DNA of 64,000 nucleotides from Micavibrio sp. UBA2137. GTDB lineage: Bacteria; Pseudomonadota; Alphaproteobacteria; Micavibrionales; Micavibrionaceae. Both the position numbers and the translations under genes were made by a program. How positions within the stretch are numbered: position 1 is the first letter of the stretch; the number at the start of each line of letters is the position of its first letter. The notes beneath the pieces are model-generated. The model saw nothing but the letters and a program-made list of their open reading frames with translations. It did no database searches and was not told the origin of the DNA. The stretch is taken from contig DCXL01000004.1 in the NCBI GenBank assembly GCA_002328415.1, positions 32,311 to 96,310 on the forward strand, read 5' to 3'. Below, piece after piece: positions 28,961 to 48,498 of the stretch.

Positions 28961-29079
28961 TTTTTCCAAAATCAAAAGATCTGTCTTTCTTAATTGTAGA
29001 TATTGAGAAATCTGCAACTTTATGTTAGTTTCAATTAGTTAAAGGCGAAGGTCTTCCCTCCTAATTGAAGCTGATTTAC

Positions 29080-30893: not shown

Positions 30894-30919
30894 TGCCTCG
30901 CAAAGGAGGCAAGCTTTTT
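30894..30919 (+). terminator. Possible rho-independent terminator
   Basis: tgcctc-gcaaag-gaggca hairpin followed by agcttttt. Confidence 0.4.
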
Positions 30920-31145: not shown

Positions 31146-33251
31146 ATGCAGGATTTTGATCCAAAAGAACAGAAACGCAAGATAGAAGCGGATGCCAATC
31201 GCAAAGTGAATGATGCGCATGCTGATGATATTGTGCAGCCAGACGCACGCCTTGAGGACGATGCTGACGATATAGATTTTGATTTTGTTGATATGACCGT
31301 TGATGAAGAAGAGCTGAAACGTGAGATGGCGCAAAATCAACGCGCGCAAAATATGCATGATGCACAACACTCTTCAGCGCAGCGCTCTATAGAAGAGCGA
31401 AACGATGATGGCCCTTTGGAAATGGATATGGAGTATGTTGCTGATGATGCGGTGACACCCCCACAGGCCGATAATTCTTCGTCAGAGACACAGGTGCCTG
31501 TAACACAAACAACGCAGGTGCAAATGTCGCAAGGAACGGATGTTGCTACTTCAGGCGCTGATGGTGATCTAGTGGATGGCCAGAAAATGCGCCTTGGTGA
31601 ACGCCTCATCAAAATGGGGCTTATTACAAATGAGCAACTGAATGTTGCACTACAAGAGAAAAAGCTGAGCGGTAAAATGCTTGGCGAGGCTATTGTTGAG
31701 CTGGGCTTTATTGACGAAGAGCAGTTAACAATTGCATTGGCTGAATCAGCGGGTTTTGAAGTGTTTGATCCGAAATCAACCATCGTTGATGGGGAGGCGC
31801 TTCGTCTTTTGTCAAAACAAGATGCGCAACGCATGCGCGTGTTGCCACTTTTTATGCATGACCAAAGTGTTTATGTCGCTTTGATTGACCCGTACGATAT
31901 CGTGGCGATGGACGCCTTGCGCCGAAAGATGCCACGCGGTTTTTCCGTCAAACCTTTAATGACAACGCCCTCTGTCCTTAATGAGGCAATTGATGCGGCT
32001 TATGGTTACGCGAGTGCGATTGAGGATATTCTTAAAGAGCTTGAAACGCTTGATACAGAAGCAATTAACAAAATCGATGAACATGAAAACTACACGCACC
32101 CGATTGTGCGTCTTGTAAACGCGATGCTGTTTGAGGCGGTAAAATCAGGTGTGTCTGACTTGCACTTTGAGCCAGAAGAAAATTTCGTAAGGTTGCGTTA
32201 TCGTTTAGACGGTGTTCTCTTCACTGCGCAAATTATTCATAAGAAATATTGGAGCGGGATTTCACAGCGTATTAAAATTATGTCTGATTTAAATATCGCT
32301 GATAAATTAAGCCCGCAAGATGGTCGTTTTAACCTAAACATTGGCGGTCGAGATGCTGATTTTCGTGTCTCGTCCTTGCCAACGGTACATGGTGAAAACA
32401 TTGTCTTGCGTGTGCTTGATAAAAAGGCATCTATTTTGCCGCTTGATGCCCTTGGTTTTTCTGATGAAAATATGGCGTTAATTGAAAAGTCTCAAACGCG
32501 GCCCGAGGGGATTATTATTGTAACGGGACCAACGGGATCTGGTAAATCAACCTCGCTTTACTCCATGTTGAATAAAATCAATGATGTTGAGCGTAATATC
32601 CAGACGCTCGAAGACCCGGTTGAATATTCCCTTCCCATGATCAGGCAAACAAATGTACGCGAGGGCGTGTTGGATTTTGCAGATGGTATCCGTGCAATGT
32701 TGCGTCAGGACCCTGATATTATCTTTATTGGGGAGATTCGTGACGCGACAACAGCTGAAATGGCGCTGAAAGCGGCCATGACAGGGCATCAGGTTTACAC
32801 AACACTTCACACAAATGATTCCTTTGGGGCTATTCCACGTTTGCTGGATTTGGGATTGAAGCCAAATATGCTTGCAGGATCAATTATTTCCATTTTTGCG
32901 CAGCGTTTGGGTCGTCGTTTGTGTCAAGATTGTCGTGTCGCTTACACAGCTAGCCCAGAAGAGTGTGAATTGCTGAAGATTGATCCTAGTAATGCGCCTG
33001 AAATTTATAAGGCGAGCCCGGATGGGTGCACAAGCTGTTCTGGTATGGGGTATAAAGGGCGTACAGGTATTATCGAGATCCTCATGTTTGATGAAGGTAT
33101 GAATGATGCGCTTGCGCGCGGTGAGTCCAAGGCTGAGTTGAAGGCCTTGGCTAAGGAAAAAGGGTTCAAGAGCTTGGCAGATGATGCCATTCTGAAAATA
33201 TTGGATGGTGTAACAAGTATTGACGCTGTTACCAAGGTTGTTAGTCTATAG
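31146..33251 (+). CDS. pilB: Type IV pilus assembly (extension) ATPase, PilB/MshE family, with an N-terminal acidic extension
   Basis: 701 aa. T2SSE_N-like region, Walker A GPTGSGKST, Asp/His boxes, Walker B IIFIGEIRD, tetracysteine CQDC...CTSC. The first ~145 aa are acidic with no similarity I recognise. Confidence 0.9.
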   Translation: MQDFDPKEQKRKIEADANRKVNDAHADDIVQPDARLEDDADDIDFDFVDMTVDEEELKREMAQNQRAQNMHDAQHSSAQRSIEERNDDGPLEMDMEYVADDAVTPPQADNSSSETQVPVTQTTQVQMSQGTDVATSGADGDLVDGQKMRLGERLIKMGLITNEQLNVALQEKKLSGKMLGEAIVELGFIDEEQLTIALAESAGFEVFDPKSTIVDGEALRLLSKQDAQRMRVLPLFMHDQSVYVALIDPYDIVAMDALRRKMPRGFSVKPLMTTPSVLNEAIDAAYGYASAIEDILKELETLDTEAINKIDEHENYTHPIVRLVNAMLFEAVKSGVSDLHFEPEENFVRLRYRLDGVLFTAQIIHKKYWSGISQRIKIMSDLNIADKLSPQDGRFNLNIGGRDADFRVSSLPTVHGENIVLRVLDKKASILPLDALGFSDENMALIEKSQTRPEGIIIVTGPTGSGKSTSLYSMLNKINDVERNIQTLEDPVEYSLPMIRQTNVREGVLDFADGIRAMLRQDPDIIFIGEIRDATTAEMALKAAMTGHQVYTTLHTNDSFGAIPRLLDLGLKPNMLAGSIISIFAQRLGRRLCQDCRVAYTASPEECELLKIDPSNAPEIYKASPDGCTSCSGMGYKGRTGIIEILMFDEGMNDALARGESKAELKALAKEKGFKSLADDAILKILDGVTSIDAVTKVVSL

Positions 33252-33261
33252 AATCATGTGA

Positions 33262-34488
33262 TTGAGGAGAAACCACATCGCACAGTATCGTTATAAAGCA
33301 TTGAATAAGAAAAACCGCGTTGTAAAAGGCGTGGTTGGCGCAGTGAATGAGGCTGATCTCTACACGCAACTGCAGTCGGCAGGGCTTGAGCTTGTCCAAT
33401 GTTCTGAAATTAAAAAAAGTGGTGGTATTACCATCATGCGTGCGCCCAGTGTTAAGACACGTGATTTGCTAACCCTATTTATTAATTTAGAGCAAATGCA
33501 AGGGGCTGGTGTTCCTTTGCTTGATGCGCTTTCAGATATTCGTGATGCCACAGATAATGACCGTTTGCGTGATATTTTGTCCGAAACATATAGAAGTGTC
33601 TCCGAGGGTGCGTCCATGTCAGAAGGTTTTGCGGCGCAACCAAAAGTTTTTTCCAATATCGTTGTCTCTCTTATTAAAGCGGGTGAGGAAACTGGGGATT
33701 TGACCTTCTCTTACCGCGAGATTTTGAAATATCTTAAATGGCAGGATGCACTTCAAAGTAAAATGAAGAAGGCAACCCGTTACCCCATAATTTTGTTGGC
33801 TGTCGTTGTTCTTACAGTCGTCATCATGCTTGGTGTGGTTGTGCCTCAAATTATTGGCTTCATTTCAAATTTGGGGCAGGAGCTACCCTTTTATACAAAA
33901 GCGCTGATGGCAACATCTGAATTTTTTCAAAATTACGGTGTATATGTCGGGATTGCTCCCTTTGCCCTGTTTGCTCTTTATAAAATATTGCGTGGTGTAT
34001 CACGTGAGTTTGCTTATCGCGCCGACAGGGTGTTCTTGTCGCTTCCTATCATGGGTCCGCTTATTCGAAAAATTACAATTGCGCGTTACGCGCAAACATT
34101 TGCGGCGCTCTATGCCAGCGGAATCAGTGTTTTGGGTTGCTTGAAGTCCGGCCGTAATACTGTAGGAAATCTGGCGCTTTATGAGGCGTTTGAAAATGTT
34201 GAAGAGCAGGTTAAAACAGGAAGTTCTTTATCCGAAGCTTTTAATTTTACAGGTGAATTTCCGTCCATGGTCGTGCGCATGGTGCGTATTGGTGAGGAAT
34301 CAGGTAATTTGACGCCAGTGCTTGCGCAGGTTTCTGAGTTTTACTCTAAGGATGTTGAGGAATCGGTTGATGGCATGATCGCTATGATTGAGCCTATGTT
34401 AACTGCCTTCTTGGGTGGAATGATCCTTTGGATTGCGGCCTCAGTGTTTGGTCCTATTTATTCCAGCTTTGGGGAAATGGACTTCTAA
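33262..34488 (+). CDS. pilC: Type IV pilus platform protein, PilC/GspF family
   Basis: 408 aa. Two GspF repeats, three TM segments, family-typical N-terminus (YRYKALNKKNRVVKG). TTG start, 10 nt after pilB. Confidence 0.9.
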   Translation: MRRNHIAQYRYKALNKKNRVVKGVVGAVNEADLYTQLQSAGLELVQCSEIKKSGGITIMRAPSVKTRDLLTLFINLEQMQGAGVPLLDALSDIRDATDNDRLRDILSETYRSVSEGASMSEGFAAQPKVFSNIVVSLIKAGEETGDLTFSYREILKYLKWQDALQSKMKKATRYPIILLAVVVLTVVIMLGVVVPQIIGFISNLGQELPFYTKALMATSEFFQNYGVYVGIAPFALFALYKILRGVSREFAYRADRVFLSLPIMGPLIRKITIARYAQTFAALYASGISVLGCLKSGRNTVGNLALYEAFENVEEQVKTGSSLSEAFNFTGEFPSMVVRMVRIGEESGNLTPVLAQVSEFYSKDVEESVDGMIAMIEPMLTAFLGGMILWIAASVFGPIYSSFGEMDF

Positions 34489-34491
34489 AAT

Positions 34492-36192
34492 ATGAGCATT
34501 TTTTCACTTCCAAAAACGATTTTAAATGTAACGGACGAGGCCGTCTTCGTCTACAAAGTCTCTGGCAAAAATGTGGATTTACTGGGTGCTTATGCATGGC
34601 AGGATGAGGACTTTGAAGCAAGTTTGTTTTCAGCCATCGTAAATGACGCAAATATGGCGCCAGTTATCCTTCTTAACGATACGGTTGACCAACACTATCG
34701 TAAGGAGCGTGTTCCAAGTGTTGGTGTGTTTGAATCGGGTACAGTTGTAAAACGCAAGCTAGCCATTGCCTTCCCGAAATATCCTTTTAGGGCTTATAAA
34801 AAACTCTCTGAAGTTACACCAAGCAAGAAAACAGCTAGCGGCGACCGCACCGTAAAGACAGCGACTTATCTTTTTGCTGCCTGCCCCGAGACACAGAATA
34901 TTCAAAAGGTTATGAATGTTCTTAAAGATACAGATGTTTCGATTGCTGGTTTTGGTCTTCTTCCAACAGAATCCGTTAACTTTGTCGAGGCACTTTCACG
35001 AAAAATATTTGGTGGCGGTGAAGGCGATAAGAAGTCCACCCTTTCTTTCTTGTCTAAGAAAAAGGCGCCTCCTCCCAAAAGTAATGTTTGGACAATTTTT
35101 ATAGGCCAAAACCGCTCTGGCGGGTTGCGTCAAATTGTGACTAAGGGCGGTGAGCTTGCATTAACGCGTATCACGCCTATCGTTGAGACAAACGAGGATA
35201 TCGAGTTATGGACAGGTGATATTTTTAGAGAATATCAAGCGACGATGACGTATCTGTCGCGCTTTGGTTATACATCTAATGACACGCTCAATATCATTGC
35301 TGTTTCTTCTGAACATTGTAAACAAAGCCTAGAGAAGGTGCTGACGCCAGAAAATGGTGCTTTTCGGGCGCTCACATTATCGGAAATGTCAAAGTTTATG
35401 GGGTATAATCCAGATTTGGAAACTCCACAAAATGTAGCTGATGATGCACATGTTTTATGGGCGGCTAATCAAACCCGTCTTTCTATGCCTCTTAGCGCGC
35501 CCCAACTTGATGCAGTGGCCAATCCGCGCCGTTATGCGACATTTGCGAGTATTGCTCTTATCTTTTTGTTGGGTGCTTCCGTATATTATGCTTCAAACGC
35601 ATTTATCAATCTTTACAAGTTGAACCAAAATATTTCTCAGGCTGAAAAAGAGCTTATTCAAGTCACGAATATTTACGAAGACGAAGTGACGCGCAAAGAA
35701 GATATGGGCGTAAGCATTCAGCTCGTGCAGGCGAGCTTTCAAATAAATGAAGAGTTACAAAAAGAAAAAATAGAACTTTATGATGTTTTGAGCGCTATAA
35801 GCGAAGGTTTGAATGATACTTTTAGTTTAAAGACTATAGATTATGAGGTTAACGAGGTTGAGGTAGTATCAGATGAAACACTTGGTTTTGTGCCGCCTGG
35901 AACAACAAGACTAGAAAAAAAGATGGTTCTTACAATGGAATTTCCTGGTGACTTCGATATTGCGGAAGGTAATGCCATTGTAAAAAGCTTTAGTGATCGC
36001 CTTGGTTATTTGCTTCCTGAGAGTAGCGTATCTGTTACGCAAGTGCTGAAAGACGTTTCATATCGCGGTGCAATTACGAGCGAAAGCGGCGTAAATACAT
36101 CGCCGCAAAATACAACGCCTTTAGAAGGGAAAGTTCAGATCCTTATTGATGATAAGATTATAGAGTCAAATAGTGCGGGGGTTCAGGGATGA
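34492..36192 (+). CDS. Pilus alignment protein, fused PilM-like/PilN-like (MshI-like architecture)
   Basis: 566 aa. Cytoplasmic N-domain of ~350 aa, one TM (YATFASIALIFLLGASVYYA), then a coiled coil plus a small periplasmic domain. The call rests on position and topology, not on strong motifs. Confidence 0.45.
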   Translation: MSIFSLPKTILNVTDEAVFVYKVSGKNVDLLGAYAWQDEDFEASLFSAIVNDANMAPVILLNDTVDQHYRKERVPSVGVFESGTVVKRKLAIAFPKYPFRAYKKLSEVTPSKKTASGDRTVKTATYLFAACPETQNIQKVMNVLKDTDVSIAGFGLLPTESVNFVEALSRKIFGGGEGDKKSTLSFLSKKKAPPPKSNVWTIFIGQNRSGGLRQIVTKGGELALTRITPIVETNEDIELWTGDIFREYQATMTYLSRFGYTSNDTLNIIAVSSEHCKQSLEKVLTPENGAFRALTLSEMSKFMGYNPDLETPQNVADDAHVLWAANQTRLSMPLSAPQLDAVANPRRYATFASIALIFLLGASVYYASNAFINLYKLNQNISQAEKELIQVTNIYEDEVTRKEDMGVSIQLVQASFQINEELQKEKIELYDVLSAISEGLNDTFSLKTIDYEVNEVEVVSDETLGFVPPGTTRLEKKMVLTMEFPGDFDIAEGNAIVKSFSDRLGYLLPESSVSVTQVLKDVSYRGAITSESGVNTSPQNTTPLEGKVQILIDDKIIESNSAGVQG

Positions 36193-36818
36193 TTAAGATT
36201 ATTGGACGCGAACGCATAATTTTCTTGTTGTCACTTCTTGGGCTTATCGCATTGATTTCGGGTGTGGCCTATTTTGTTATAGCACCCAAAATGGTTGCTG
36301 CAGAGCGAACGTTGGCAACAAAGAAAATTCAGGTCTCTGCAAAAAAGAACGATACTATGATGTTGCGAGATGAGTTCAGGACATTCCAAGAACGCGCTGA
36401 AAAATTCAAAGAGTTAGAGGTTTCAGGCCTTTTTGAAACGCAGAACAGACTTGAGGCCATCGATAAGGTGGAAGGATTTCGCGAAGAGATTGGCTTGTTA
36501 AAAGCGAGTATTAAAGTTGATGCGGGCGAAATTGTTGAAGATCAAAGAATGGACCGACTTGATAATGTTTATTTGGAAAGCCCTGTTTCTTTTACGCTTG
36601 AGGCGCTTGATGATATCGAGGTGTATACTTTCTTAAAGCTTGTGGAGGACCGCTTTCCTGGACGGTTGGTTGTTCAAAACCTCAAAATTGAGAAGGTTGC
36701 TGATATTACGACTGAAACATTGGCGAGTATTGTAAATGGTATTCCGACACCGATGGTTAAAGCAACAGCAGATTATAACTGGGTTACTCTGCCAGCAGAA
36801 AATGAATTGGAGCAATAA
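36189..36818 (+). CDS. PilO/MshJ-like bitopic pilus alignment protein
   Basis: 209 aa. N-terminal TM (IIFLLSLLGLIALISGVAYFVIA), coiled coil, small C-domain. ATGA overlap with the upstream gene. Confidence 0.4.
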   Translation: MIKIIGRERIIFLLSLLGLIALISGVAYFVIAPKMVAAERTLATKKIQVSAKKNDTMMLRDEFRTFQERAEKFKELEVSGLFETQNRLEAIDKVEGFREEIGLLKASIKVDAGEIVEDQRMDRLDNVYLESPVSFTLEALDDIEVYTFLKLVEDRFPGRLVVQNLKIEKVADITTETLASIVNGIPTPMVKATADYNWVTLPAENELEQ

Positions 36819-36819
36819 G

Positions 36820-37587
36820 ATGGCATACTCCAAAATCGTGATTTCAATTTCTGCATGTATTCTTTTTCTAGGAAGCACTTTCCATGCTTATGCTCAAAAT
36901 GCGCCTGATCCCGAAGGGGTTCCTATTGTGGATGTATTAGAGACTTTTGCCGATATTCAGGAGCCGCAGGGTGTTGAAAACGAAAATGCAAACACAGAAA
37001 CTGATTCAGTAACCGTGGAGGAAAACGCACAAGAAGGTAGTCTTGCTGTCGGTGTATCTGTTCCCGATTATAACGTTGATGAAATTGTACCCACCGAAAT
37101 GATTGTAATGCGCCTCGTTGAAGATGAAGTGCGGGAATATTACAAGGAAGATATTGTTGAAGCACCTGACTTTCCATCATTGATGTTTTTGCCAGAAAAC
37201 TATGCTCTATTGCGTGCTGCAATTTCACGTTTCCCACGAAAGAAAACGGCAGAAGAAATAGCTGATGAGGGCCCACAGTTGCCTGATGAGCAAACTGATG
37301 ACCCGACAGCCACTGGTGACGACGGTATTAATGTTGAAGTTATTGAGTACGAGCGCAATGTCTCTTTAGGTGGCATATTATTTTACAACGAGAGTAACTG
37401 GATTATCTGGTTGAACGAAAAGCGCGTTACGCCAAAGGCGTTGCCAGAGGAAATAACAGATATCAGTGTTGAAAAAGGCGCTGTCAAATTGAAGTGGTTA
37501 GATAAGAAAACAAACACAGTTTATCCGATAAGGCTTAAGCCAAATCAAACGTTTAATCTGGATGCGCGCGTCTTTTTGCCGGGGTAG
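36820..37587 (+). CDS. Exported PilP/MshK-like protein
   Basis: Signal peptide MAYSKIVISISACILFLGSTFHAYA from the ATG at 36820. Acidic linker, then a C-terminal beta-rich segment (VSLGGILFYNESNWIIWLNEKRV...ISVEKGAVKLKW). Confidence 0.35.
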   Translation: MAYSKIVISISACILFLGSTFHAYAQNAPDPEGVPIVDVLETFADIQEPQGVENENANTETDSVTVEENAQEGSLAVGVSVPDYNVDEIVPTEMIVMRLVEDEVREYYKEDIVEAPDFPSLMFLPENYALLRAAISRFPRKKTAEEIADEGPQLPDEQTDDPTATGDDGINVEVIEYERNVSLGGILFYNESNWIIWLNEKRVTPKALPEEITDISVEKGAVKLKWLDKKTNTVYPIRLKPNQTFNLDARVFLPG

Positions 37588-37592
37588 ATTCT

Positions 37593-38342
37593 ATGAGCGC
37601 AGTCAAAAAAACCCTTCCAGCAGAGCAAGTTAGTCCTCTCTCATTTGAAAATATAAGTGTTGGCTATGGGGCGTTTCGGGTTGCTTCTGATGTAAATATC
37701 ACCTTGAAATCAGGCCATATCCACGGACTTATCGGTTTAAACGGTGTTGGAAAAACGACGTTGATTAAAACGCTTCTGGGGCTACGCGATCCACAAGAGG
37801 GGCATATAAGCATTTTTGGCGAAACGTGCGGGACGTTAAAAGCAAAGAAAAAAATTTCCTATTTGCCAGAGCGTTTTGATCCGCCTTGGTTTTTGACGGG
37901 GCTAGAATTTGTTCGCTTTTCAGCAAAGCTTTATAACGCAACAATTTCGGATAAAGATATTTTTGAGATGGCCGAAAAGCTGTCTCTTGATACACATTTT
38001 TTAAGTCAAAAAGCGCAAAGCTATTCCAAGGGTATGCGGCAAAAGTTGGGGTTGATAGCAACTGTGTTGATGCCAGCTAAGCTTCTTATTTTGGATGAGC
38101 CCATGTCAGGTCTTGACCCGCTTGCACGTGTACAGGTGAAGGATGTGTTGGAGGCCTGCCGTGATGCAGGAAAGACAATATTTCTTTCAAGTCATATTTT
38201 GGCTGACCTTGATGAGATGTGTGAAGACATATCAATTCTGCATGGGGGCGCGATTGTTTATTCTGGTTCTCCAGAAGCACTTCGCAAGAAAACAAAAGAA
38301 AAGTCTCTGGAAAGAGCATTTCTGAAGTCGATTGCATCATAG
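37593..38342 (+). CDS. ABC transporter ATP-binding protein embedded in the pilus cluster
   Basis: 249 aa. Walker A GLNGVGKTT, signature YSKGMRQKLGL, Walker B LLILDEPMSGLD, H-loop SSH. Confidence 0.9.
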   Translation: MSAVKKTLPAEQVSPLSFENISVGYGAFRVASDVNITLKSGHIHGLIGLNGVGKTTLIKTLLGLRDPQEGHISIFGETCGTLKAKKKISYLPERFDPPWFLTGLEFVRFSAKLYNATISDKDIFEMAEKLSLDTHFLSQKAQSYSKGMRQKLGLIATVLMPAKLLILDEPMSGLDPLARVQVKDVLEACRDAGKTIFLSSHILADLDEMCEDISILHGGAIVYSGSPEALRKKTKEKSLERAFLKSIAS

Positions 38343-38367
38343 AAGATAAACAGGATAAGATAAAAAT

Positions 38368-39945: not shown

Positions 39946-39957
39946 AGAAAGTTTCCC

Positions 39958-40740
39958 ATGAGTACATATATGGGCGTTTCTCTCATATTTTTCTTTTACG
40001 GGCTATTAGGTCTATTTACTGGCGCTGTACTTGGCAGTTTTTCTGCGGCCTTTGTTTACAGGCAAGCGCATCAGATATCCATTTTTAAAGATAAAAATAA
40101 AAAATTTTCACGCTCGAAGTGTGCCTCTTGCAAACATGTTCTGGCATTAAAGGACCTTGTCCCAGTCTTGTCATGGATAAACTTGCGCGGAAAATGTCGC
40201 TATTGTCAGGCACGGATTTCCAGTCTTTATCCTATAATTGAAGCTGTAAGTATGTTTTATGCTGTTTTTATCCTCTTTGCTTGGGATATTAGCGTTTTAT
40301 CACTCATCTATTTGGTTGCATTGCCTCTTTGTTGGGTGCTTATCATCAATGGGGCTCGTAATGCGACATACTCATTGGGTGTTATTGCCTGTTTTGTAAT
40401 TTTAGCTTTGGTTTACGCAGTTTTGAAGCCACTCTTGATAACAACTGTGCTGTGGGCCTTTGGATTATCGCTTTGTGTAGCGTTATTGCTTAAGGTATTT
40501 ACGCGGCACTGGGCCTTGAAAGAAAGTGCCTTTTTTGCGGCATTGATTGTAATGACTGGCGCAACGCTTTTGCCGCTTGCACTTCTTGTCTTGGCGCTGT
40601 TTATGCTGGGAGTGCGTAAGGTCAGGCCAGATGTTTTGCTGGAAGGGTGTTTTATTTCAGCAACCGCCTCCAGTTTTATTTTCATAACTTTGGTGCAAGG
40701 CGCTATGAATATTTATGACTTATTATCAAGTATTTATTAA
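39958..40740 (+). CDS. Prepilin peptidase homolog (A24 family) lacking recognisable catalytic aspartates
   Basis: 260 aa. The N-terminal domain aligns with PilD (GAVLGSFSAAFVYR, CASCKHVL...DLVPVLSW...GKCRYCQARISSLYPIIE). The polytopic C-domain has no (I/L)D...LPD motif and no GxGD(F/V)KL motif. Confidence 0.65.
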   Translation: MSTYMGVSLIFFFYGLLGLFTGAVLGSFSAAFVYRQAHQISIFKDKNKKFSRSKCASCKHVLALKDLVPVLSWINLRGKCRYCQARISSLYPIIEAVSMFYAVFILFAWDISVLSLIYLVALPLCWVLIINGARNATYSLGVIACFVILALVYAVLKPLLITTVLWAFGLSLCVALLLKVFTRHWALKESAFFAALIVMTGATLLPLALLVLALFMLGVRKVRPDVLLEGCFISATASSFIFITLVQGAMNIYDLLSSIY

Positions 40741-40821
40741 CACTTGAGCACTAAACTAACCTCTATAAATTCCGTTTCGGAATTGCTACACTGAAAAGAG
40801 AGACAAAGGAGGGACTTTTCC

Positions 40822-41979
40822 GTGGATATTACTCAATTACTTGCATTTGTGATGCAAAATGATGCGTCTGATTTGCATCTTAGCCCCGAAAACCCTCCGA
40901 TTGTGCGTGTTCATGGGAAATTGAAGCGCGTGAAATCCGATATATTGGAATCAGATCAGATTAGAAAAATGCTCTATTCCATTATGACGGAGGATCAGCG
41001 TGCGGCCTATGAAAACGATATGGAGCTTGATTTTGCGATTTCCTTTGGTGAAAAGGCGCGTTTCCGTGTGAATGCCTTTACTACCCGTAAAGGGGTGACG
41101 GCCGTTTTACGTACAATTCCCTCCGAAATTCCAACAATGGATGAAATTGATCTGCCAATGGTTATTCGCCGTTTTGCAGATTTGGAGCAGGGAATTGTTC
41201 TTGTAACAGGCGCAACAGGATCGGGTAAATCGACAACGCTTGCGTCCTTGATTAACCATATCAATAAAACACAGCAGAAACATATCCTAACTATTGAAGA
41301 CCCAGTCGAATTTTTCCATCACTCTGACAAAAGTTTGATTAACCACCGTGAATTGAATGTTGATACTAAATCCTATGCTAAAGCTTTGAAAAGCGCTCTT
41401 CGTGAAGACCCTGATGTTATTCTTATCGGGGAGATGCGGGACCACGAAACAATTTCACTTGCGCTGACTGCCGCAGAAACGGGGCACTTGGTGTTTGGAA
41501 CATTGCACGCTAATTCGGCCTCGAAAACAATTGACCGTATTATTGACGTGTTCCCAGGGAGTGAGAAGGACATGGTTCGCGCCATGCTTGCAGGATCACT
41601 TCAGGGCGTTGTCGCGCAAAAGCTTCTACGCCGTAAAGAGGGTGGGCGTGTTGGTGTGCATGAGGTGCTGGTTGGAACTGGTGCGGTGCGTAACCTTATT
41701 CGCGAAAACCAACTGCCACAGCTTTATTCTATGATGCAAACAGGCTCGCGTTATGGGATGACGACAATGGAAGATTCGGCACAAAGCCTATATGAAGATG
41801 GGATTATTTCGAAGGAAGAAGCTAATCGTGTATTGCGAAAAGCCGCTGATGAAGATGATGCAGGAATCACGCGTGAAGAGGGTGAGGTTGCAGCTTCTCT
41901 TGGTGGTCGCGCACTTGAAGATACGTCTCAGAAGTTCGGCGGTAAAGAACAAGATAGTGAGGATGATTACAGCTTTTGA
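40822..41979 (+). CDS. pilT: Twitching-motility (retraction) ATPase PilT, with a ~40-aa acidic C-terminal tail
   Basis: 385 aa. ASDLHL, Walker A GATGSGKST, TIEDPVEF, GEMRD, AAETGHLVFGTLH. GTG start with an AAAGGAGGG RBS. Confidence 0.9.
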   Translation: MDITQLLAFVMQNDASDLHLSPENPPIVRVHGKLKRVKSDILESDQIRKMLYSIMTEDQRAAYENDMELDFAISFGEKARFRVNAFTTRKGVTAVLRTIPSEIPTMDEIDLPMVIRRFADLEQGIVLVTGATGSGKSTTLASLINHINKTQQKHILTIEDPVEFFHHSDKSLINHRELNVDTKSYAKALKSALREDPDVILIGEMRDHETISLALTAAETGHLVFGTLHANSASKTIDRIIDVFPGSEKDMVRAMLAGSLQGVVAQKLLRRKEGGRVGVHEVLVGTGAVRNLIRENQLPQLYSMMQTGSRYGMTTMEDSAQSLYEDGIISKEEANRVLRKAADEDDAGITREEGEVAASLGGRALEDTSQKFGGKEQDSEDDYSF

Positions 41980-43106
41980 TACAGGACATCCTCACATATT
42001 TTGATGCAATGATTGACACAGAAGCCTCGGATCTTTATCTCACGGCGGGGTCGCGTCCGACCATGCGTGTGGATGATGCACTTCAAACGATAGGCGAAAC
42101 AAGCCTTGCTGAAAAAGATATTCAAAATATTATTTCATCTCTTCTGTCTCTTCGTCAGGTGCGAGAGTTTGAGATGAATAAGGAGTTGAATACAGCCGTC
42201 GATGCAGGAGAGAAGGGGCGCTATCGTATTAATGTGATGCAACAGCGTCAAAAGCCAGCACTGGTTATTCGCCGTATTGTAACAAAAATTCCTGATTTTG
42301 AAGCGTTGCGTTTACCAGCCATTTCGGAAAAGCTAGCCTTGATGAAGCAAGGTTTAGTTTTGTTCACAGGGATGACAGGTTCTGGTAAATCAACATCTCT
42401 TGCCTCTATTCTGGATTATAGAAACACACATCGTGCAGGGCATATCATTACTATCGAAGATCCAATTGAGTTCTTTCATGAACATAAGCAATCAGTCATT
42501 ACGCAGCGCGAAGTAGGCGTGGATACCGAAAGTTATGAGGCAGCACTTAAGAATGTACTGAGGCAACGCCCTGATGTCATTATGATTGGTGAAATTCGCT
42601 CACGTGAAGTTATGGAGCAAGCTTTGACAGCTGCGGAGACTGGGCACTTATGCTTTGCAACATTGCACACGAATAACACTTATCAGGCCATTGACCGCAT
42701 CGTAAATTTCTTTCCAGAAGAACTACAAAGTCAGATTTGCCTGAACCTGTCTCTTAATTTACGCGCCATCGTATCGCAGCGTCTTATTCCATCCCTTCAA
42801 GGTGGTTTAGCGCTTGCCTCGGAGGTTCTTCTGAATGAGGGGTATATCAAAACACTTATTCATGAAGGCAAGATCAAAGAAATCCTGGGTGTCATGTCGA
42901 AGAACAGTGTGCAAGGCATGCAAACTTTTGACGGTTCGCTGCTCGAGCTTTACCGAGAAGGCGTTATTTCTGAAGAAAGCGCGCTAACTTTTGCCGATAT
43001 ACCAGGCGACCTGAAGGTTAAACTTAAAGAATCAGGCATGAAAAGTACGGATGAAGGCTCTGGCTTGGGTGCAATTGATACAACATTGCTTTCTATTTCT
43101 GAATAA
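41976..43106 (+). CDS. pilU: PilT-family ATPase paralog (PilU-like)
   Basis: 376 aa. ASDLYL, GMTGSGKST, TIEDPIEF, GEIRS, AAETGHLCFATLH. TTG start overlapping the pilT stop (TTGA). Confidence 0.85.
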   Translation: MIQDILTYFDAMIDTEASDLYLTAGSRPTMRVDDALQTIGETSLAEKDIQNIISSLLSLRQVREFEMNKELNTAVDAGEKGRYRINVMQQRQKPALVIRRIVTKIPDFEALRLPAISEKLALMKQGLVLFTGMTGSGKSTSLASILDYRNTHRAGHIITIEDPIEFFHEHKQSVITQREVGVDTESYEAALKNVLRQRPDVIMIGEIRSREVMEQALTAAETGHLCFATLHTNNTYQAIDRIVNFFPEELQSQICLNLSLNLRAIVSQRLIPSLQGGLALASEVLLNEGYIKTLIHEGKIKEILGVMSKNSVQGMQTFDGSLLELYREGVISEESALTFADIPGDLKVKLKESGMKSTDEGSGLGAIDTTLLSISE

Positions 43107-43203
43107 GCCCATGATAGAGACCCTCAACCCCTTGCACTCATATCTGTAAACAGGCATTATATTGGAGTGATTCACTGCGAGTCATGCCTTATATTCGTCT
43201 TTC

Positions 43204-45180
43204 ATGAAAGGTCTTGCGTCCGCAATGTTGTTTTCTAAAGCTTTCAAAAAATCTGTTCCTTTGGCAGTCGCTGTTGCGTTGTTGAGCACATCGGCCTTTT
43301 CACTAACTGGCTGTGACTTGACGCAAAACCATCTGAAAATTGATCGTGAAAAAAACATGGACAGACAGGATTACCGTGATGCGCTTGCGTCACGTGATCC
43401 GAATTTAGAAGAGTTTGTCGAATTTGATGACTCCATTCCTGCGCTTCAGCCTTACGTTGAAGAAGTCAGCATGAACGCGCGTCCGATCCCGCTTGTCTCT
43501 GTTTCTGTTAATCAGACAATCCCTCTACGTGATGTCTTATTTGAGTTGGCTGATCAGGCAGGCTATGACCTTGAACTGGATCCACGCATTTCGGGGTCAA
43601 TTATTTTCTCTGCGCGCAACAAACCTTTTGATGTTGTGATTGACAGGATCTCTGATATAGCAGGTTTACGCTATAAATTTGATGATGACAGCCTGCGCGT
43701 TGAATTGGATACACCGTACAGCAAAAGTTATAAAATTGATTATCTAACTGTTATTCGTACAACTGCGAGCACAATGTCGAATAATATTTCTGTTGTAACG
43801 GGTGAGGGCGCCGACACTGGATCTGCCTTTAATATTACAAGTAACTCCGAAGCGGACTTCTGGGGCGAGCTTGAAACAAACCTGACACAGATATTGGAAT
43901 CAAATGCGAGCCGTGGTTTCTTAAGAACTGGATCCGACCCAATTATTGAGGTTGTGGAGAGTAATGCTCCCGGTGGCCCCGCAACAGTTGATATTCCAGT
44001 CGAGCAGTTGACGGATGCACAGGTTAATGACGAGCCGTCTATCGTAGAAGAAGGTACAGAGCCACAGCTTGATGAAAACGGTGTCCCACTTCCAACACCG
44101 GGTCAGGATACATCGACACCACCTGTTGTTCAGCCGAGAAACACAATTTTACAGGTTACGTCATCGCCCGCTGCGACACCAACTGGTGCAGATGGTGAAG
44201 CAAATGAGGTTAATTTCACACCCTCTTTTTCAATTAACAGACAGGCTGGCCTCGTATCTGTTTACGCTAATGAACGCATCCACAAGGAAGTCGCTGATTA
44301 TCTTGGTGAATTGAAGAAATCGCTCACTTCGCAAGTCCTTATTGAGGCGAAAGTTCTCGAAGTGTCTTTAAGTGATGAATTTTCGACTGGTATTGATTGG
44401 GCAAAATTAGGGGATTTCATTAGTCCTGAACTGTCTCTTGCGTTTGGTACAACAGGAGCGGGTTCTCGCCCCGCGCTAACACCTGTTGCAGGCAGTGATT
44501 TTGTTGCTGGTTATGTCGGTAGCGACTTAGGCGCGGTTGTTCAGGCCATCTCGCGTTTTGGAACGGTCTCAGCCTTGGCTAGTCCACGTATGACGGTACT
44601 TAATAATCAGGCTGCAGCCTTGAATGTGGCTCAAAATTCAGTTTATTTCGAAATTGAAATTGATGTGACGACTGAAGAGGGCGTTACACAGACAGATATT
44701 GATAGTGATATTCGTAACGTACCAGAAGGTGTTTTGATTAACGTGCTTCCAACAATTAATCCTGATACGGGCTCGATTACCATGCAGGTGCGCCCGACGG
44801 TCACGCGCATTGTTAACCGTGTCGAGGATCCCGCAGTTGCCTTTGTAGCGGCGCAGGCTGATATTGAGGGTATTTCATCACAGGTGCCTGAATTGAATGT
44901 GCAGGAAATTGACTCTATCCTTTCTATGCAATCAGGCGAGGTTGCTGTTCTTGGTGGTCTTATCCAGGACCGCGTTGAAAGTCAGCAAGAAAGCATTCCT
45001 GTATTAGGTGAGGTTCCTGTTATCGGTGCTGCTTTCCGCAATCAAGCAGATAATATTCAAAAAACAGAATTGGTTATTTTCTTGAAGGCAACAATAGTGG
45101 ATGCGCCAAGTACAGTAAGTCAAACTGATAAAGAGCTGTACAGAACGTTTTCACAAGACAGACGCCCCTTGAAATTCTAA
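43204..45180 (+). CDS. Lipoprotein secretin (PilQ/MshL-like)
   Basis: 658 aa. Lipobox SLTG-C, N-domains, and a C-terminal secretin domain (LASPRMTVLNNQAAALNV...IPVLGEVPVIGAAFRNQ...ELVIFLKATIV). Confidence 0.85.
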   Translation: MKGLASAMLFSKAFKKSVPLAVAVALLSTSAFSLTGCDLTQNHLKIDREKNMDRQDYRDALASRDPNLEEFVEFDDSIPALQPYVEEVSMNARPIPLVSVSVNQTIPLRDVLFELADQAGYDLELDPRISGSIIFSARNKPFDVVIDRISDIAGLRYKFDDDSLRVELDTPYSKSYKIDYLTVIRTTASTMSNNISVVTGEGADTGSAFNITSNSEADFWGELETNLTQILESNASRGFLRTGSDPIIEVVESNAPGGPATVDIPVEQLTDAQVNDEPSIVEEGTEPQLDENGVPLPTPGQDTSTPPVVQPRNTILQVTSSPAATPTGADGEANEVNFTPSFSINRQAGLVSVYANERIHKEVADYLGELKKSLTSQVLIEAKVLEVSLSDEFSTGIDWAKLGDFISPELSLAFGTTGAGSRPALTPVAGSDFVAGYVGSDLGAVVQAISRFGTVSALASPRMTVLNNQAAALNVAQNSVYFEIEIDVTTEEGVTQTDIDSDIRNVPEGVLINVLPTINPDTGSITMQVRPTVTRIVNRVEDPAVAFVAAQADIEGISSQVPELNVQEIDSILSMQSGEVAVLGGLIQDRVESQQESIPVLGEVPVIGAAFRNQADNIQKTELVIFLKATIVDAPSTVSQTDKELYRTFSQDRRPLKF

Positions 45181-45941
45181 TGACACTTCTTGTCCGATAT
45201 GTCTTAACAGCTTGCATACGTGACAAGGTTTTTCTGTCTATGATTGTGGCTTCGGCCGTAGCTGTTTCATTATCTGTTTTTCTGGGATCGACAGCAATCG
45301 TGGAACAAGATCAATTTGTGATTGTTTTCGCCGCATCTAGCCTGCGCTTTCTTCTCATTATGGGAATTACACTGTTTATTGTGTTTTATACCCGTCGAAC
45401 GGTCGAACAGCGTGATTTGGATTATTTGATTACACGCCCTATTACGCGACGAGACTATATCGTGGCACATACCGCAAGCTTTGCAATAATTAGTCTGCTT
45501 TTGTCTTCTGTGATTTTTACTGTGATAGGCTTGATAGGAAAAGGCTATTTTAACGCGGGGTATATCCTATGGGGCATAAGCCTTTTCTTCGAAATGGTGA
45601 TTGTTGCGAGTGCGGCCTTCTTCTTTTCCATGGTTTTGCGCTCAGCTGTTTCGGCGGTTTTATCTACTTTTGCATTATACGCTTTGGCGCGTCTTATCGG
45701 GCAAATTATTGGGATAGCCGTTAGTCCTGACATTGCGGCACAATATCCATTTTTTGCAAATACCATGACAACAGTCTCTCTCTTCGTGCCACGTTTAGAT
45801 TTATTTGCACAATCGTCATGGCTTCTCTATGGAACGGACAAATTCGGATTTTTATCTATTCTTGTATTTGTGCAGGGTGTTATTTTTACAGCGCTCCTTA
45901 CAGTTATGACGCTTATCGATCTGCATAAAAAAGAATTTTAG
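45180..45941 (+). CDS. Polytopic membrane protein, ABC-2-type permease-like
   Basis: 253 aa with ~6 predicted TM helices. The start overlaps the secretin stop (TAATG). Probable partner of the ABC ATPase at 37593-38342. Confidence 0.5.
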   Translation: MTLLVRYVLTACIRDKVFLSMIVASAVAVSLSVFLGSTAIVEQDQFVIVFAASSLRFLLIMGITLFIVFYTRRTVEQRDLDYLITRPITRRDYIVAHTASFAIISLLLSSVIFTVIGLIGKGYFNAGYILWGISLFFEMVIVASAAFFFSMVLRSAVSAVLSTFALYALARLIGQIIGIAVSPDIAAQYPFFANTMTTVSLFVPRLDLFAQSSWLLYGTDKFGFLSILVFVQGVIFTALLTVMTLIDLHKKEF

Positions 45942-45950
45942 AGGAGAAAC

Positions 45951-46676
45951 ATGCAAATTAATGCACGCTCGCTTCGCAATTTATCTCTTGCTTTGGGGGT
46001 TTTTGTTACACTCCAGATTGTTTTCTCGCTTGGCATTCGTCCAGAACGTGCCCAATGGGGGAATGTACCAGATGCCCCGAACATAAATGCCTACCAATCA
46101 TCCTTTCTAGGAGACACCTCATTGGCACATCGTATGGTGGGCATGTTGCTCCAGAATTTTGGCGGTTCTGGAGGGCGTGTTGAGTCAATCCATGAGTATG
46201 ATATGCATAAAGTCGCGCAATGGCTTGCGCTTGGTTTTGAATTGGAAGAGCGCTCTAATTATCTTCCCTTTCTGGCGGCCTATTATTTTGGAGCAACAGA
46301 AACGAAATCCGAGCTAGAGCCCCTTATAGATTTTTTGGCAGAAGTTGGCCGTTATGATGATGACGATAATTGGCGGTGGCTTTCCAATGCTGTTTATTTA
46401 GCGCGCTTTCGTGCAGAAAATTTTGAAAAGGCTGTTGTTCTGGCAGACGAATTAGCGACTATGTACAGGCCAGGACGGCCAGCATTAATTGCGCAAATGC
46501 CAGCTTTTATACAATTGCAGATAGGGGATAAGGATGCTGCTTACGCTATTATGCTTGAGCTTATAAAAGAATCATCTGAGACAATGCATCCAAATGAAGT
46601 TAATTTTATGGTTGATTATATCTGCACACGCACACTTTCGCCCAAAAAAGCACTTGAAAATCCACTTTGCCAATGA
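45951..46676 (+). CDS. Membrane-anchored helical-repeat protein, unknown function
   Basis: 241 aa. GAGGAG RBS, N-terminal TM (LSLALGVFVTLQIVFSLGI), TPR-like helical remainder. Starts 9 nt after the permease gene. Confidence 0.4.
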   Translation: MQINARSLRNLSLALGVFVTLQIVFSLGIRPERAQWGNVPDAPNINAYQSSFLGDTSLAHRMVGMLLQNFGGSGGRVESIHEYDMHKVAQWLALGFELEERSNYLPFLAAYYFGATETKSELEPLIDFLAEVGRYDDDDNWRWLSNAVYLARFRAENFEKAVVLADELATMYRPGRPALIAQMPAFIQLQIGDKDAAYAIMLELIKESSETMHPNEVNFMVDYICTRTLSPKKALENPLCQ

Positions 46677-46901
46677 TCGTGATGTAATTAGAACAAATAT
46701 GTCAAAAATGTGGCAAGCTATTGTAGCTAAAGGCCTGTAAATAAATTTATTTTTTCTAATATAGTCCGTTTTTTTATGTTTTATTAAGACATGCCATGTG
46801 AAAATAAAAAGATAAGGGATAATCCCTTGTATGGCATAGAAAATGAAATATACTGTATGTGTCAAAACATTATGCAATTGTGCAACTTCAAGGGGAATAA
46901 A

Positions 46902-47675
46902 ATGACGGAATTTATAAATATTGATCGCAATAAGGACGATGGTTTTACACTGGTTGAACTCGCGATTGTTATGATCATTATCGGTCTTTTGATCGGTGGT
47001 GTTCTTAAGGGACAAGAATTAATTGCCAATGCGGAGGTGACTGCATCCGTGTCTCAGGTAAAGGCGACGGAATCTGCGATGTCAACTTTCCAAGATGCTT
47101 ACGCGAATTTGCCAGGCGATATGACTAACCCTGCCGCGCGTATTCCAAACTGTACAGGCGAATGTGCGCGTGTTGGTAATGCAAACGGCTTGATTGAGCC
47201 ACTTCCAGGGGCTGCACAAACTCTTGCTATGGAGGCGCAAACATTCTGGTCACAGCTTGCTGCTGCTGACATTTTGGGTGGTGTGATAGCAGATTCTCCT
47301 GCGGTTGTTCCTACACCGGGTCAAACACACCCTGAATTTCCATCAGGTGGAGCTCTACGTGTTGGATATCACGTTGGAGGTGTCATTACTGGACAAACAG
47401 CTGCTGCAGGGCAAAGTGCAGGCCACTATGTGAATTCAACTTTAGCATTAGCCAATATTGCCACGAACACACAAGCAGACTCAGCTCTTTCGCCGGGTCA
47501 GGCTTCACGCATTGACTCAAAAATTGACGATGGTCAGCCCAACACAGGAAGTGTTCTTGGTAATGGACAGGCTGCTGCTGGTACAACATCTTGTGCACTT
47601 GGTACAGGTGTGACAGATGTTTATAATACAGCGCAGACAAGTCTTAACTGTAATACGTACATTCGTATAAGATAA
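46902..47675 (+). CDS. pilA: Type IV pilin (major pilin candidate)
   Basis: Class III signal MTEFINIDRNKDDG|FTLVELAIVMIIIGLLIGG with Gly-1, Phe+1, Glu+5. AAGGGGA RBS at the ATG at 46902. 243-aa mature protein with Cys pairs CTGEC and C...C near the C-terminus. Confidence 0.85.
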   Translation: MTEFINIDRNKDDGFTLVELAIVMIIIGLLIGGVLKGQELIANAEVTASVSQVKATESAMSTFQDAYANLPGDMTNPAARIPNCTGECARVGNANGLIEPLPGAAQTLAMEAQTFWSQLAAADILGGVIADSPAVVPTPGQTHPEFPSGGALRVGYHVGGVITGQTAAAGQSAGHYVNSTLALANIATNTQADSALSPGQASRIDSKIDDGQPNTGSVLGNGQAAAGTTSCALGTGVTDVYNTAQTSLNCNTYIRIR

Positions 47676-47696: not shown

Positions 47697-47727
47697 AAAG
47701 AGAGGCTCATTTCAGCCTCTTTTTTTT
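47697..47727 (+). terminator. Rho-independent terminator after the pilin gene
   Basis: agaggct-catttc-agcctct hairpin followed by TTTTTTT. Confidence 0.7.
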
Positions 47728-47729
47728 GT

Positions 47730-48476
47730 TTATTTCTTAACGCCTTTCATCATGGGCGTAATAAGGTCCATCGGAATGGGGAGAACCATTGTATTACCCT
47801 TGGCGTTTGTGAATTCGCCCATTGTGCCTAGATAGCGTAGTTGCATTGTCTCTGGGCGTTTGGCAAGAATTTCAGCGGCGTTATCAAGCTGCTTAGCTGC
47901 TTGAAACTCACCCTCGGCGTTAATGACCTTGGCGCGACGCTCACGCTCGGCCTCAGCCTGCTTGGCAATCGCACGCACCATTGTTGGATCAAGGTCGATA
48001 TGCTTAATCTCGACATTAGTGACTTTGATGCCCCAACCATCAGTTTGTGTATCCAGAATGGTTTGAATATCAGTATTCAACTGCTCACGTTTTGAAAGCA
48101 TATCGTCTAGATCGTGTTTACCGAGCACAGAGCGCAATGTCGTTTGTGCCAGTTGTGAGGTTGCATTATAGAAGTTTTCAACGCGGTTGATCGCATCACC
48201 TGGCTCAACAACGCGATAATACACAACGGCATTCACGCGCACGGAGACGTTATCGCGTGAAATTACATCCTGTGAAGGGATATCCTCGGTTCTAATACGC
48301 ATATCCACGCGCACAAGCTCTTGAATGATAGGTAGGATTAGTTGTAATCCTGGCGCACGTGAACCGCTATATTTACCAAGTGTGTAAACAACGCCACGTT
48401 CATATTCCTTTATGATACGTATTGAAGTGGCCATGAGAATGAATAATCCCAAAAGCACAATGCCTAAGAATGTCAT
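47730..48476 (-). CDS. SPFH/band-7 (stomatin-like) protein
   Basis: 248 aa. N-terminal TM plus a PHB domain (IIKEYERGVVYTLGKY...DVISRDNVSVRVNAVVYYRV). Confidence 0.9.
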   Translation of the reverse strand: MTFLGIVLLGLFILMATSIRIIKEYERGVVYTLGKYSGSRAPGLQLILPIIQELVRVDMRIRTEDIPSQDVISRDNVSVRVNAVVYYRVVEPGDAINRVENFYNATSQLAQTTLRSVLGKHDLDDMLSKREQLNTDIQTILDTQTDGWGIKVTNVEIKHIDLDPTMVRAIAKQAEAERERRAKVINAEGEFQAAKQLDNAAEILAKRPETMQLRYLGTMGEFTNAKGNTMVLPIPMDLITPMMKGVKK

Positions 48477-48498
48477 GGTTTAAGTCCTTTCTATATAA

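Follow-up and report, generated by a model that had tools for sequence, protein, structure and literature searches.

Which type IV filament system does a compact gene cluster in a marine Micavibrio genome encode, and is it a known one? The cluster occupies positions 31146–47675 of a 64,000-nucleotide (64-kb) stretch of contig DCXL01000004.1 of Micavibrio sp. UBA2137, which we call the window, and consists of 14 co-directional, tightly packed open reading frames (ORFs) on the forward strand. A preliminary description of the same DNA had listed these genes as a type IV pilus locus of mixed composition. All 14 ORFs were recovered, and recomputation after two start corrections returned the junction range it had given, from -4 to +97 nt. 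Its parts list also proved essentially right when set against Pfam, NCBIfam and structure models. We conclude, with a probability of roughly 0.72, that the cluster encodes a complete, envelope-spanning, retractile type IV pilus machine of a subtype typical of Micavibrio-like alphaproteobacteria.

Conservation of the locus

The proteins of the cluster correspond to NCBI entries MAF67775–MAF67798, labelled 'Micavibrio sp.', and the host is a Tara Oceans metagenome-assembled genome (MAG); these exact sequences were present on Tara Oceans contigs as long as 1.76 Mb. The labels of the proteins, those of their relatives and the published phylogeny all agree with the alphaproteobacterial, Micavibrio-like host proposed earlier. 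A 31-gene phylogeny placed Micavibrio deep in the Alphaproteobacteria (PMC3189940). The NCBI taxonomy lists Micavibrio under Bdellovibrionota / Pseudobdellovibrionaceae; this placement is outdated, so the 'Bdellovibrionales bacterium' labels on related MAGs are misleading.

The family of gene 3 was found in 195 species-level genomes, and the locus counts in this text refer to the best 80 of these 195. The 80 were labelled Micavibrio, Alphaproteobacteria or Pseudobdellovibrionaceae, with a few Rhodospirillales, Rhodospirillaceae and Pseudomonadota; one locus, L032, carries an Alcanivorax label and probably stems from mis-binning. Genes 1–13 occurred in the same order in nearly all loci of sufficient length, a recurrence that puts the arrangement far beyond chance. 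The cluster is the standard, lineage-typical pilus locus of its order, the Micavibrionales. The preliminary description had considered such a machine uncommon in alphaproteobacteria, and this view has to be recast, since the cluster is the norm across about 80 related genomes. A sister strain (L098, a Tara strain, ENA ERZ28654183) allowed the ratio of non-synonymous to synonymous divergence (dN/dS) to be calculated. It ranged from 0.01 to 0.30 over all cluster genes; each of them is under purifying selection, which speaks for a system in use. Separately, the divergence between the two strains was uneven, with 88–92% nucleotide identity in genes 1–3 (dS 0.38–0.69) and 98–99% in genes 9–12 (dS 0.03–0.07). 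This mosaic along 31146–45941 suggests that recombination may have occurred within the cluster.

The cultured predator Micavibrio aeruginosavorus ARL-13, whose genome was published in 2011, carries the same genes in the same order and the opposite direction as GMV_1530–GMV_1544 (PMC3189940). They are annotated there as pilin, hypothetical, membrane protein, secretin, PilU-like, PilT, leader peptidase, TPR, ABC, three hypotheticals, T2SS-F and T2SS-E. The genes annotated downstream in ARL-13 are L19, TrmD, RimM, S16 and Ffh, of which L19, TrmD and Ffh hold matching positions in the window. ARL-13 differs from the window in having an AraC-family gene between the pilin and the remaining genes. 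The genome paper mentions 'dispersed pil genes' and an incomplete type II secretion system (T2SS) lacking GspC, G, H and K (PMC3189940), so the cluster was never described there as one system, and our literature search found no later paper that treats it as such. Two findings together would have told against the preliminary description by its own terms: classification as a standard pilus system, and a gene order already widely annotated in characterised relatives. Half of this applies, as the order is annotated in ARL-13, under generic names; the cluster is still unclassified. The genes have therefore been known from a published genome since 2011, and what is new is their recognition as one conserved system. 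Also new are the cryptic scaffold proteins, the integral ABC module, the wider alphaproteobacterial family with its MshM-bearing sister architecture, and the lineage-specific decay of the peptidase.

This sister architecture is found in distant members of the gene-3 family, in genomes of 51–62% GC, where the cluster is rearranged ('type 2'). It opens with MshM-like AAA protein, full peptidase or PilT, secretin, gene-12-like, gene-13-like and pilin(s) and continues with PilB/MshE, PilC, gene-3-like, gene-4-like, gene-5-like, ABC ATPase, GGDEF and DUF2336. The modules kept in these distant alphaproteobacterial relatives are E-G-MN-O-P-ABC and secretin-permease-TPR-like-pilin. The AAA protein of two of them, L093 and L097, stands beside the secretin and is 38–44% identical to Legionella MshM. 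Comparably distant family members with names are Rhodospirillales or Alphaproteobacteria MAGs. In L093 (13580–16545) and L097 (13366–16087), genes for a GGDEF diguanylate cyclase and a DUF2336 protein adjoin the pilus cluster, which fits control by cyclic di-GMP (c-di-GMP) of an ATPase bearing an MshEN module. The window has a DUF2336 gene at 62439–63563, about 15 kb downstream of the cluster, and no adjacent GGDEF gene was seen there.

Components of the machine

Gene 1 (31146–33251) encodes a PilB/MshE-like extension ATPase with T2SSE (388 bits) and MshEN (47.5 bits) Pfam domains. The T2SSE core carries a CxxC..CxxC zinc motif, and the protein passed the c-di-GMP motif model NF053729 (62.1 vs a cut-off of 38). 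It stayed below the cut-offs of the PilB model TIGR02538 (512 bits vs 675.65) and of the GspE model (502 bits vs 630), and its closest structures in the Protein Data Bank (PDB) were PilF/PilB. Residues 1–145 (31146–31580) form a highly acidic, low-complexity N-terminal extension before MshEN. Homologues range from 555 to 786 amino acids (aa), with 833 aa in L093, so this extension is very variable. Matches to gene 1 on Skermanella and other alphaproteobacterial megaplasmids were set aside; they belong to ordinary T2SS clusters without PilT. Gene 2 (33262–34488) encodes the inner-membrane platform of the PilC/GspF/MshG family, with a T2SSF domain (167 bits). The GspF model gave 305 bits (cut-off 424), above the PilC models, and BLAST scores were nearly equal for MshG (172 bits) and GspF (170 bits), and higher than for HofC (112 bits).

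The two retraction ATPases, PilT (gene 9, 40822–41979) and the PilU-like accessory protein (gene 10, 41976–43106), overlap by 4 nt. Both exceeded the TIGR01420 cut-off of 319, with scores of 465 and 418. They are told apart by the AIRNLIRE-type motif: gene 9 and all 66 of its homologues have it as AVRNLIRE, and gene 10 and 63 of its 65 homologues lack AIRNLIRE. PilT and PilU lie together within the cluster in 60 or more species.

The scaffold proteins were harder to place. Genes 3, 4 and 5, as well as gene 13, had no Pfam or NCBIfam match as window proteins, and the preliminary description had likewise found the alignment-complex proteins too diverged to be recognised by motif. A structure model of gene 3 (34492–36192), made with AlphaFold2 (AF2) from a 33-sequence alignment, reached a mean confidence (pLDDT) of 83.3 and contained an actin-like ATPase fold in residues 1–330. 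In Foldseek searches, this fold matched PilM of P. aeruginosa (5eou, E 3.7e-10) and of T. thermophilus (2ych) first, with E-values of 4e-10 to 7e-9 over these matches, followed by FtsA and the cytoplasmic domain of GspL. Past the actin fold come a transmembrane (TM) helix at about residues 349–367, a long coiled helix and a PilN-like periplasmic domain of the ferredoxin-type alpha/beta kind. Gene 3 is thus modelled as a PilM-PilN fusion of the GspL/MshI architecture, which bears out the fused protein proposed earlier. A search of 1.84 billion proteins with the family profile gave 1168 representatives; of the best 150, nearly all were 520–570 aa long. This near-uniform length means that the fusion is a stable state of the family.

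Gene 4 (36189–36818), which overlaps gene 3 by 4 nt, encodes a bitopic membrane protein with a TM helix at residues 10–28, a coiled coil and a C-terminal domain. For gene 5, the likeliest start is 36820 and not 36736, as the Met at 36820 was invariant in an alignment of 34 homologues; the gene (36820–37587) encodes a secreted protein in which a signal peptide and an acidic linker precede a conserved C-terminal domain of about 90 aa. Each was conserved in 78 loci, and gene 5 was found in the distant clusters as well. Pfam searches with 34 and 32 family members of the cryptic proteins gave no significant match, nor did their family profiles against all PDB sequences. Comparison of the cryptic families by hmmsearch and HHalign with the Gsp and Hof proteins of E. 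coli, the Msh proteins of Legionella and Aeromonas and the Gsp proteins of Skermanella also gave nothing significant. An HHalign comparison of the gene-4 with the gene-3 family, bearing on PilN/PilO paralogy, returned only a TM/coiled-coil match of 16% probability. Position, translational coupling and topology suggest that gene 4 is PilO/GspM/MshJ-like and gene 5 PilP/MshK/GspC-HR-like. The PilO-like and PilP-like labels had been given earlier with more assurance than position and topology allow, as no sequence-level link was found.

Gene 11 (43204–45180) encodes an outer-membrane secretin with a Pfam Secretin domain (112.8 bits) and a weak Secretin_N_2 match; no AMIN domain was detected. The MshL model TIGR02519 scored best among the secretin models (219.8 bits, below its cut-off of 250.2), followed by GspD (112.5 bits vs 351) and the PilQ model TIGR02515 (76.7 bits vs 284.35). 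The BLAST scores took a similar order, with 129 bits for Legionella MshL, 82 for E. coli GspD and 56 for HofQ; the closest PDB secretins were GspD. The protein has a lipobox, LTGC, at Cys37, and the signal-peptide Cys was kept in essentially all full-length homologues, so the secretin is a lipoprotein as the preliminary description had held. The major prepilin is encoded by gene 14 (46902–47675), whose start was corrected to 46902 with the ribosome-binding site AAGGGG upstream. It matched Pfam N_methyl (29.6 bits) and TIGR02532. The class III signal peptide has a 14-aa leader, MTEFINIDRNKDDG, ending in Gly and followed by FTLVE, with Phe at +1 and Glu at +5. The mature protein is about 243 aa long with a C-terminal Cys pair, and is 37% identical to the pilins of L093 and L097. 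The gene has its own AT-rich upstream region, as described before. This presumed pilin promoter (46677–46901) spans 225 nt at 28.9% GC, compared with 43.8% GC for the cluster.

Gene 8 (39958–40740) is a degenerate prepilin peptidase. It matched A24_N_bact (PF06750; 82.6 bits vs a cut-off of 23) and had no match to Peptidase_A24 (PF01478). The N-terminal zinc-ribbon domain with its CxxC..CxxC motif is kept and the protein is still polytopic; both catalytic Asp motifs, D....[ILVM]LP and GxGDVK, are missing, as they are in 16 other lineages. The preliminary remark that no obviously active prepilin peptidase was present agrees with this loss. Most of 43 homologues, aligned together with E. coli GspO, had both catalytic motifs and an FPFGPAL motif. 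Over a larger set of 68, both motifs were found in 47 and neither in 17, the latter including the nearest relatives of the window. Several of the motif-less proteins were shortened to about 160 aa, and the N-terminal CxxC..CxxC domain was present in all. Against the sister strain, dN/dS was 0.11 in the N-terminal half and 0.44 in the C-terminal half, the latter from small counts of 8 synonymous and 11 non-synonymous changes. Motif loss and the low N-terminal dN/dS together indicate that in the lineage of the window gene 8 is a putative pseudo-enzyme, with its N-terminal domain still constrained. Because the catalytic aspartates are lost, leader cleavage would have to rely on an enzyme encoded elsewhere.

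Four further genes are interspersed with these core parts. Gene 6 (37593–38342) encodes an ABC transporter ATPase of the DrrA/GldA/NatA type (ABC_tran, 86 bits; top NCBIfam models RbbA, DrrA and GldA). It was conserved in 76 loci, always straight after genes 3–5, and kept this position in the distant loci L092, L093 and L097. Gene 7 (38368–39945) encodes a membrane-anchored tetratricopeptide repeat (TPR) protein with a single TM helix at residues 77–95, a long acidic linker and C-terminal repeats (Pfam TPR_1/2/16). Its NCBIfam matches to PilW, Tgl and GltE were weak and its C-terminus was conserved in 71 loci; it is possibly a secretin-assembly factor of the MshN/PilF type. Gene 12 (45180–45941) encodes a protein with six predicted hydrophobic segments, which are the main support for regarding it as the probable ABC-2-type permease partner of gene 6. 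Sub-threshold ABC2_membrane_2/_3/_4 matches were seen in 4 of 11 members of its family, and it was conserved in 58 loci as well as in L093 and L097. Gene 13 (45951–46676) always follows gene 12, in Micavibrio-type loci and in L093 and L097. Its AF2 model (pLDDT 92.5) is all-helical, with an N-terminal TM helix and a TPR-like alpha-solenoid that is probably periplasmic; Foldseek gave only weak TPR-type matches (the AspH TPR domain, YfgM and SNAP, E >= 1.6e-2). A C-terminal Cys pair is conserved.

In both cluster types the place of the ABC ATPase is always after the scaffold genes, and that of the permease and gene 13 always after the secretin. This fixed co-conservation implies that all three are functional parts of the system. 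The ABC-like pilGHI genes are embedded in the pil clusters of M. xanthus and related deltaproteobacteria (PMC6060248), and the 'Myxococcus-like' label once given to the present module would express an analogy only. A tblastn search of plasmids with the gene-12 permease found no match, and a pilus cluster on a Geoalkalibacter plasmid was without ABC genes.

Affinities and alternative explanations

The preliminary description stood up on one further point: the cluster is not classifiable as a standard type IVa pilus (T4aP), mannose-sensitive haemagglutinin (MSHA, or MSH) pilus or T2SS. Only the PilT/PilU equivalog models of NCBIfam were passed, all others staying below cut-off; MshM is absent, and the extension ATPase forms a clade of its own. 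This clade came from a neighbour-joining tree of 431 columns with 100 bootstraps and few references, which included the canonical Aeromonas msh cluster. The Micavibrio-type and type-2 ATPases formed one clade with 100% support, apart from a 100% clade of the two MshE references and a 100% clade of gammaproteobacterial GspE; the PilB references also fell outside it. With so few references and no resolution at any deeper node, we used the tree only to recognise a distinct clade and not to place it. The envelope parts lean toward MSH or T2SS and the motor side toward T4aP. The cluster is best described as an alphaproteobacterial lineage of the T4aP/MSH/T2SS radiation that has MSH-like affinities and is not a demonstrable member of any of the three as now defined.

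With the T4aP of P. aeruginosa and M. xanthus, the cluster shares a PilB-type motor, a PilC platform, PilT/PilU, the PilM fold and a pilin that has a short leader and, at its C-terminus, a Cys pair of the disulfide type. It differs from them in that the secretin is not PilQ-like and lacks AMIN, PilM and PilN are fused, and separate PilM, PilN, PilO and PilP are not recognised by family models. In addition, the window holds no minor pilins or PilY1, and PilS/PilR are missing, as noted before, with no regulator of their size among the large window ORFs scanned.

Several observations weigh against a complete retractile pilus machine. Genes 4 and 5 showed no similarity to PilO/PilP, GspM/GspC or MshJ/MshK in searches of Pfam, with PDB profiles or by HHalign. 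The ABC2_membrane_2 match of gene 12 reached only 20.2 bits, below the cut-off of 27.2. A motif scan of the 64-kb window found a single prepilin and no minor pilin, in line with the earlier account, and the window held neither a second A24-type motif nor an active prepilin peptidase. With no active peptidase and no minor pilins there, the machine is not self-sufficient as seen in the window. Nor did up to 10 kb on either side of gene 3 in the 80 relatives contain a prepilin besides the major pilin; ARL-13 has prepilin operons elsewhere in its genome (PMC3189940). The role of the cluster in pili or predation is inferred in every member, and a predatory lifestyle of this marine MAG is unproven. 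Photoheterotrophy has been proposed for at least one MAG of the Micavibrionales (PMC9933672).

A possible but doubtful extension of this view is that the Micavibrionales and some Rhodospirillales-like alphaproteobacteria hold a separate, unclassified branch of the T4aP/MSH/T2SS radiation, with an obligatory ABC-2 transporter and, in one sublineage that includes this genome, a catalytically dead PilD as scaffold. The ABC ATPase would then be genetically tied to the PilMN-O-P scaffold, and the permease and TPR-like protein to the secretin and pilin. In the Micavibrio type, the ABC module could replace part of the role of MshM or of a pilotin, or could export a factor that is associated with the pilus and required for attachment to prey.

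It is unlikely that the cluster is a plain member of the MSHA family, with diverged alignment proteins and PilT/PilU merely linked. The MSHA systems of Vibrio cholerae, Aeromonas and Legionella do share with it an MshL-like secretin, an MshEN ATPase, a TPR protein and retraction by PilT/PilU, which serve the MSHA pili of V. cholerae (PMC9815625). Their PilM-like protein adjoins a PilN-like one, the two being fused in the window. Besides MshL being the top secretin model, the highest-scoring match of gene 11 in a plasmid collection was Legionella MshL. The ATPase carries the c-di-GMP MshEN motif, and its best match in Aeromonas caviae was the MshE of the canonical msh cluster. The TPR protein stands at the position expected for MshN, and the rearranged loci L093 and L097 have the MshM-like AAA protein beside the secretin. 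However, MshM, which is mandatory in the published MSH model (PMC6668835, Denise et al. 2019), was absent from the window and from 80 Micavibrionales loci in tblastn searches with Legionella MshM and the MshM-like proteins of L093 and L097 as queries. The MshL score stayed under its curated cut-off, and the ATPase family stood apart from the MshE clade, in a tree that lacks deep resolution. BLAST and profile searches found no similarity to MshI, MshJ or MshK of Legionella and Aeromonas, although the architecture of gene 3 is compatible with MshI. MSH loci reportedly never hold a prepilin peptidase (PMC6668835), whereas this cluster does, in degenerate form and together with PilT/PilU. No minor pilin operon is linked to it, and the msh clusters of Aeromonas and Legionella that were inspected had nothing corresponding to the added ABC transporter and gene 13.

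A T2SS or T2SS-like exporter, in which a short pseudopilus pushes hydrolytic enzymes through the secretin, is quite improbable. The ARL-13 genome paper implicitly assumed this reading by listing a T2SS without GspC, G, H and K (PMC3189940). The cluster resembles Gsp systems in its GspL-like fused scaffold and GspF-like platform, and in the cores of its ATPase (GspE-like) and secretin (GspD-like). The platform scored best with the GspF model, the ATPase scored nearly alike with GspE and PilB, and its core is 44–48% identical to E. coli GspE. Among secretins in the PDB, GspD comes closest, the PilM-PilN fusion equals the GspL architecture, and the N-terminus of the pilin shows a weak preference for the GspG model. 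These likenesses are outweighed by the retraction motors, which score above the curated threshold and lie in the cluster in the many species counted above; we know of no T2SS with a retraction ATPase. Neither GspC nor the minor pseudopilins GspH–K turned up in domain searches or the prepilin motif scan. The mature pilin is large, GspG being much smaller than its approximately 243 aa, and the M. aeruginosavorus pilin is very highly expressed. Moreover, the ATPase carries a c-di-GMP module, the secretin models rank MshL far above GspD, and the GspD, GspE and GspF equivalogs all fail (112.5/351, 502/630 and 305/424 bits).

In many bacteria, DNA is taken up by means of retractile T4aP-like pili with PilT, and the contents of the window are compatible with a competence pilus rather than one for adhesion or predation, but this is very improbable, as no ComEA-, ComEC- or DprA-type genes were found among the window ORFs scanned and the M. 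aeruginosavorus pilin orthologue peaks in the prey-attachment phase; such a role is compatible with a retractile type IV pilus and is without positive support.

Genomic setting and biological meaning

The cluster is bounded on both sides. A terminator-like hairpin (30894–30911, +) follows the upstream gene and marks the 5' boundary, with a 260-nt region of 37.7% GC between it and gene 1. At the 3' boundary, a strong hairpin terminator (47697–47724, +) with an 11-bp stem and T-runs on both strands is common to the pilin gene and a convergent SPFH gene. The latter belongs to an SPFH/Band-7 and NfeD gene pair at 47730–48945 (-). A sigma-70 promoter scan was uninformative, with 31 sites against 34 expected by chance from shuffles and thus no enrichment, and inspection by eye of the region before the pilin gene showed no sigma-54 -24/-12 match.

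The flanks consist of core genes (DnaG, RpoD, GltX, NadE, LpxK, KdtA, L19, TrmD, Ffh, FtsY and DapF), and GC content is flat across the window. The cluster is part of the chromosomal backbone, a vertically inherited, coherent unit and not an island. Recent horizontal acquisition, or a chimeric island, was rejected because GC is flat, the neighbours are core genes and synteny with ARL-13 extends past the cluster. The mixed or chimeric flavour of the preliminary description is not borne out either, as the cluster is coherent, of normal GC, set among core genes and under purifying selection in every gene.

Other features of the neighbourhood deserve mention. Directly upstream of the cluster and just after a tRNA-Arg (28884–28960), a gene at 29065–30885 (+) encodes a 606-aa protein, possibly an adhesin, that has a beta-domain of the inverse-autotransporter (intimin/invasin) type and a repetitive C-terminal part rich in Gly and Asn. 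A tblastn search of the 80 related loci found no match to it, which places it outside the conserved cluster, and its position next to the tRNA hints at a small insertion. Adjoining GNAT-type (Acetyltransf_5) and acyltransferase genes at 25823–27444 (-) lie beside KdtA and LpxK; we take this pair to resemble the OlsB/OlsA pair of ornithine-lipid synthesis. Two large ORFs had no Pfam match at all: 8662–10491 (-), of 609 aa, and 27511–28821 (-), of 436 aa.

How the machine might work can be outlined from what is known of the protein families. The large pilin (gene 14) would be transcribed from its presumed own promoter and inserted in the inner membrane, where a prepilin peptidase encoded elsewhere would trim the 14-residue leader. 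The hexameric ATPase of gene 1 would drive extension through the gene 2 platform, and its MshEN module probably ties extension to c-di-GMP, a control documented for MshE in V. cholerae (PMC9815625). The PilM-PilN fusion of gene 3 and the PilO- and PilP-like proteins of genes 4 and 5 would form the alignment scaffold, and the pilin polymer would leave through the lipoprotein MshL-like secretin (gene 11). PilT and PilU would then depolymerise the filament and pull the cell towards an object bound at the tip. The products of genes 6, 12, 7 and 13 most likely help in assembling the secretin or the pilus or in keeping them stable, or they export a factor associated with the pilus.

By analogy with M. 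aeruginosavorus, the likely role of such a pilus would be attachment to prey cells or surfaces. The positional pilin counterpart in ARL-13, GMV_1530, had values of 34.5 in the attack phase and 196.5 in the attachment phase, and was among four pili genes singled out by the authors (PMC3189940). Few epibiotic predators among bacteria have been cultured; Micavibrio is one of them, and its use as a 'living antibiotic' has been proposed. A single conserved locus of 13–14 genes is a concrete target for testing pilus-mediated prey capture in these organisms. For the family as a whole, the cluster adds a type IV filament lineage with scaffold proteins outside all current family models, for which reason classifiers are likely to call it 'generic' or to split it between T2SS and type IV pili. 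It is also, after the deltaproteobacterial PilGHI, a second phylogenetic setting in which an ABC transporter is tied to a pilus machine. Finally, the peptidase of the cluster has repeatedly lost its catalytic half and kept its N-terminal domain, which amounts to a small natural experiment on the function of that domain.

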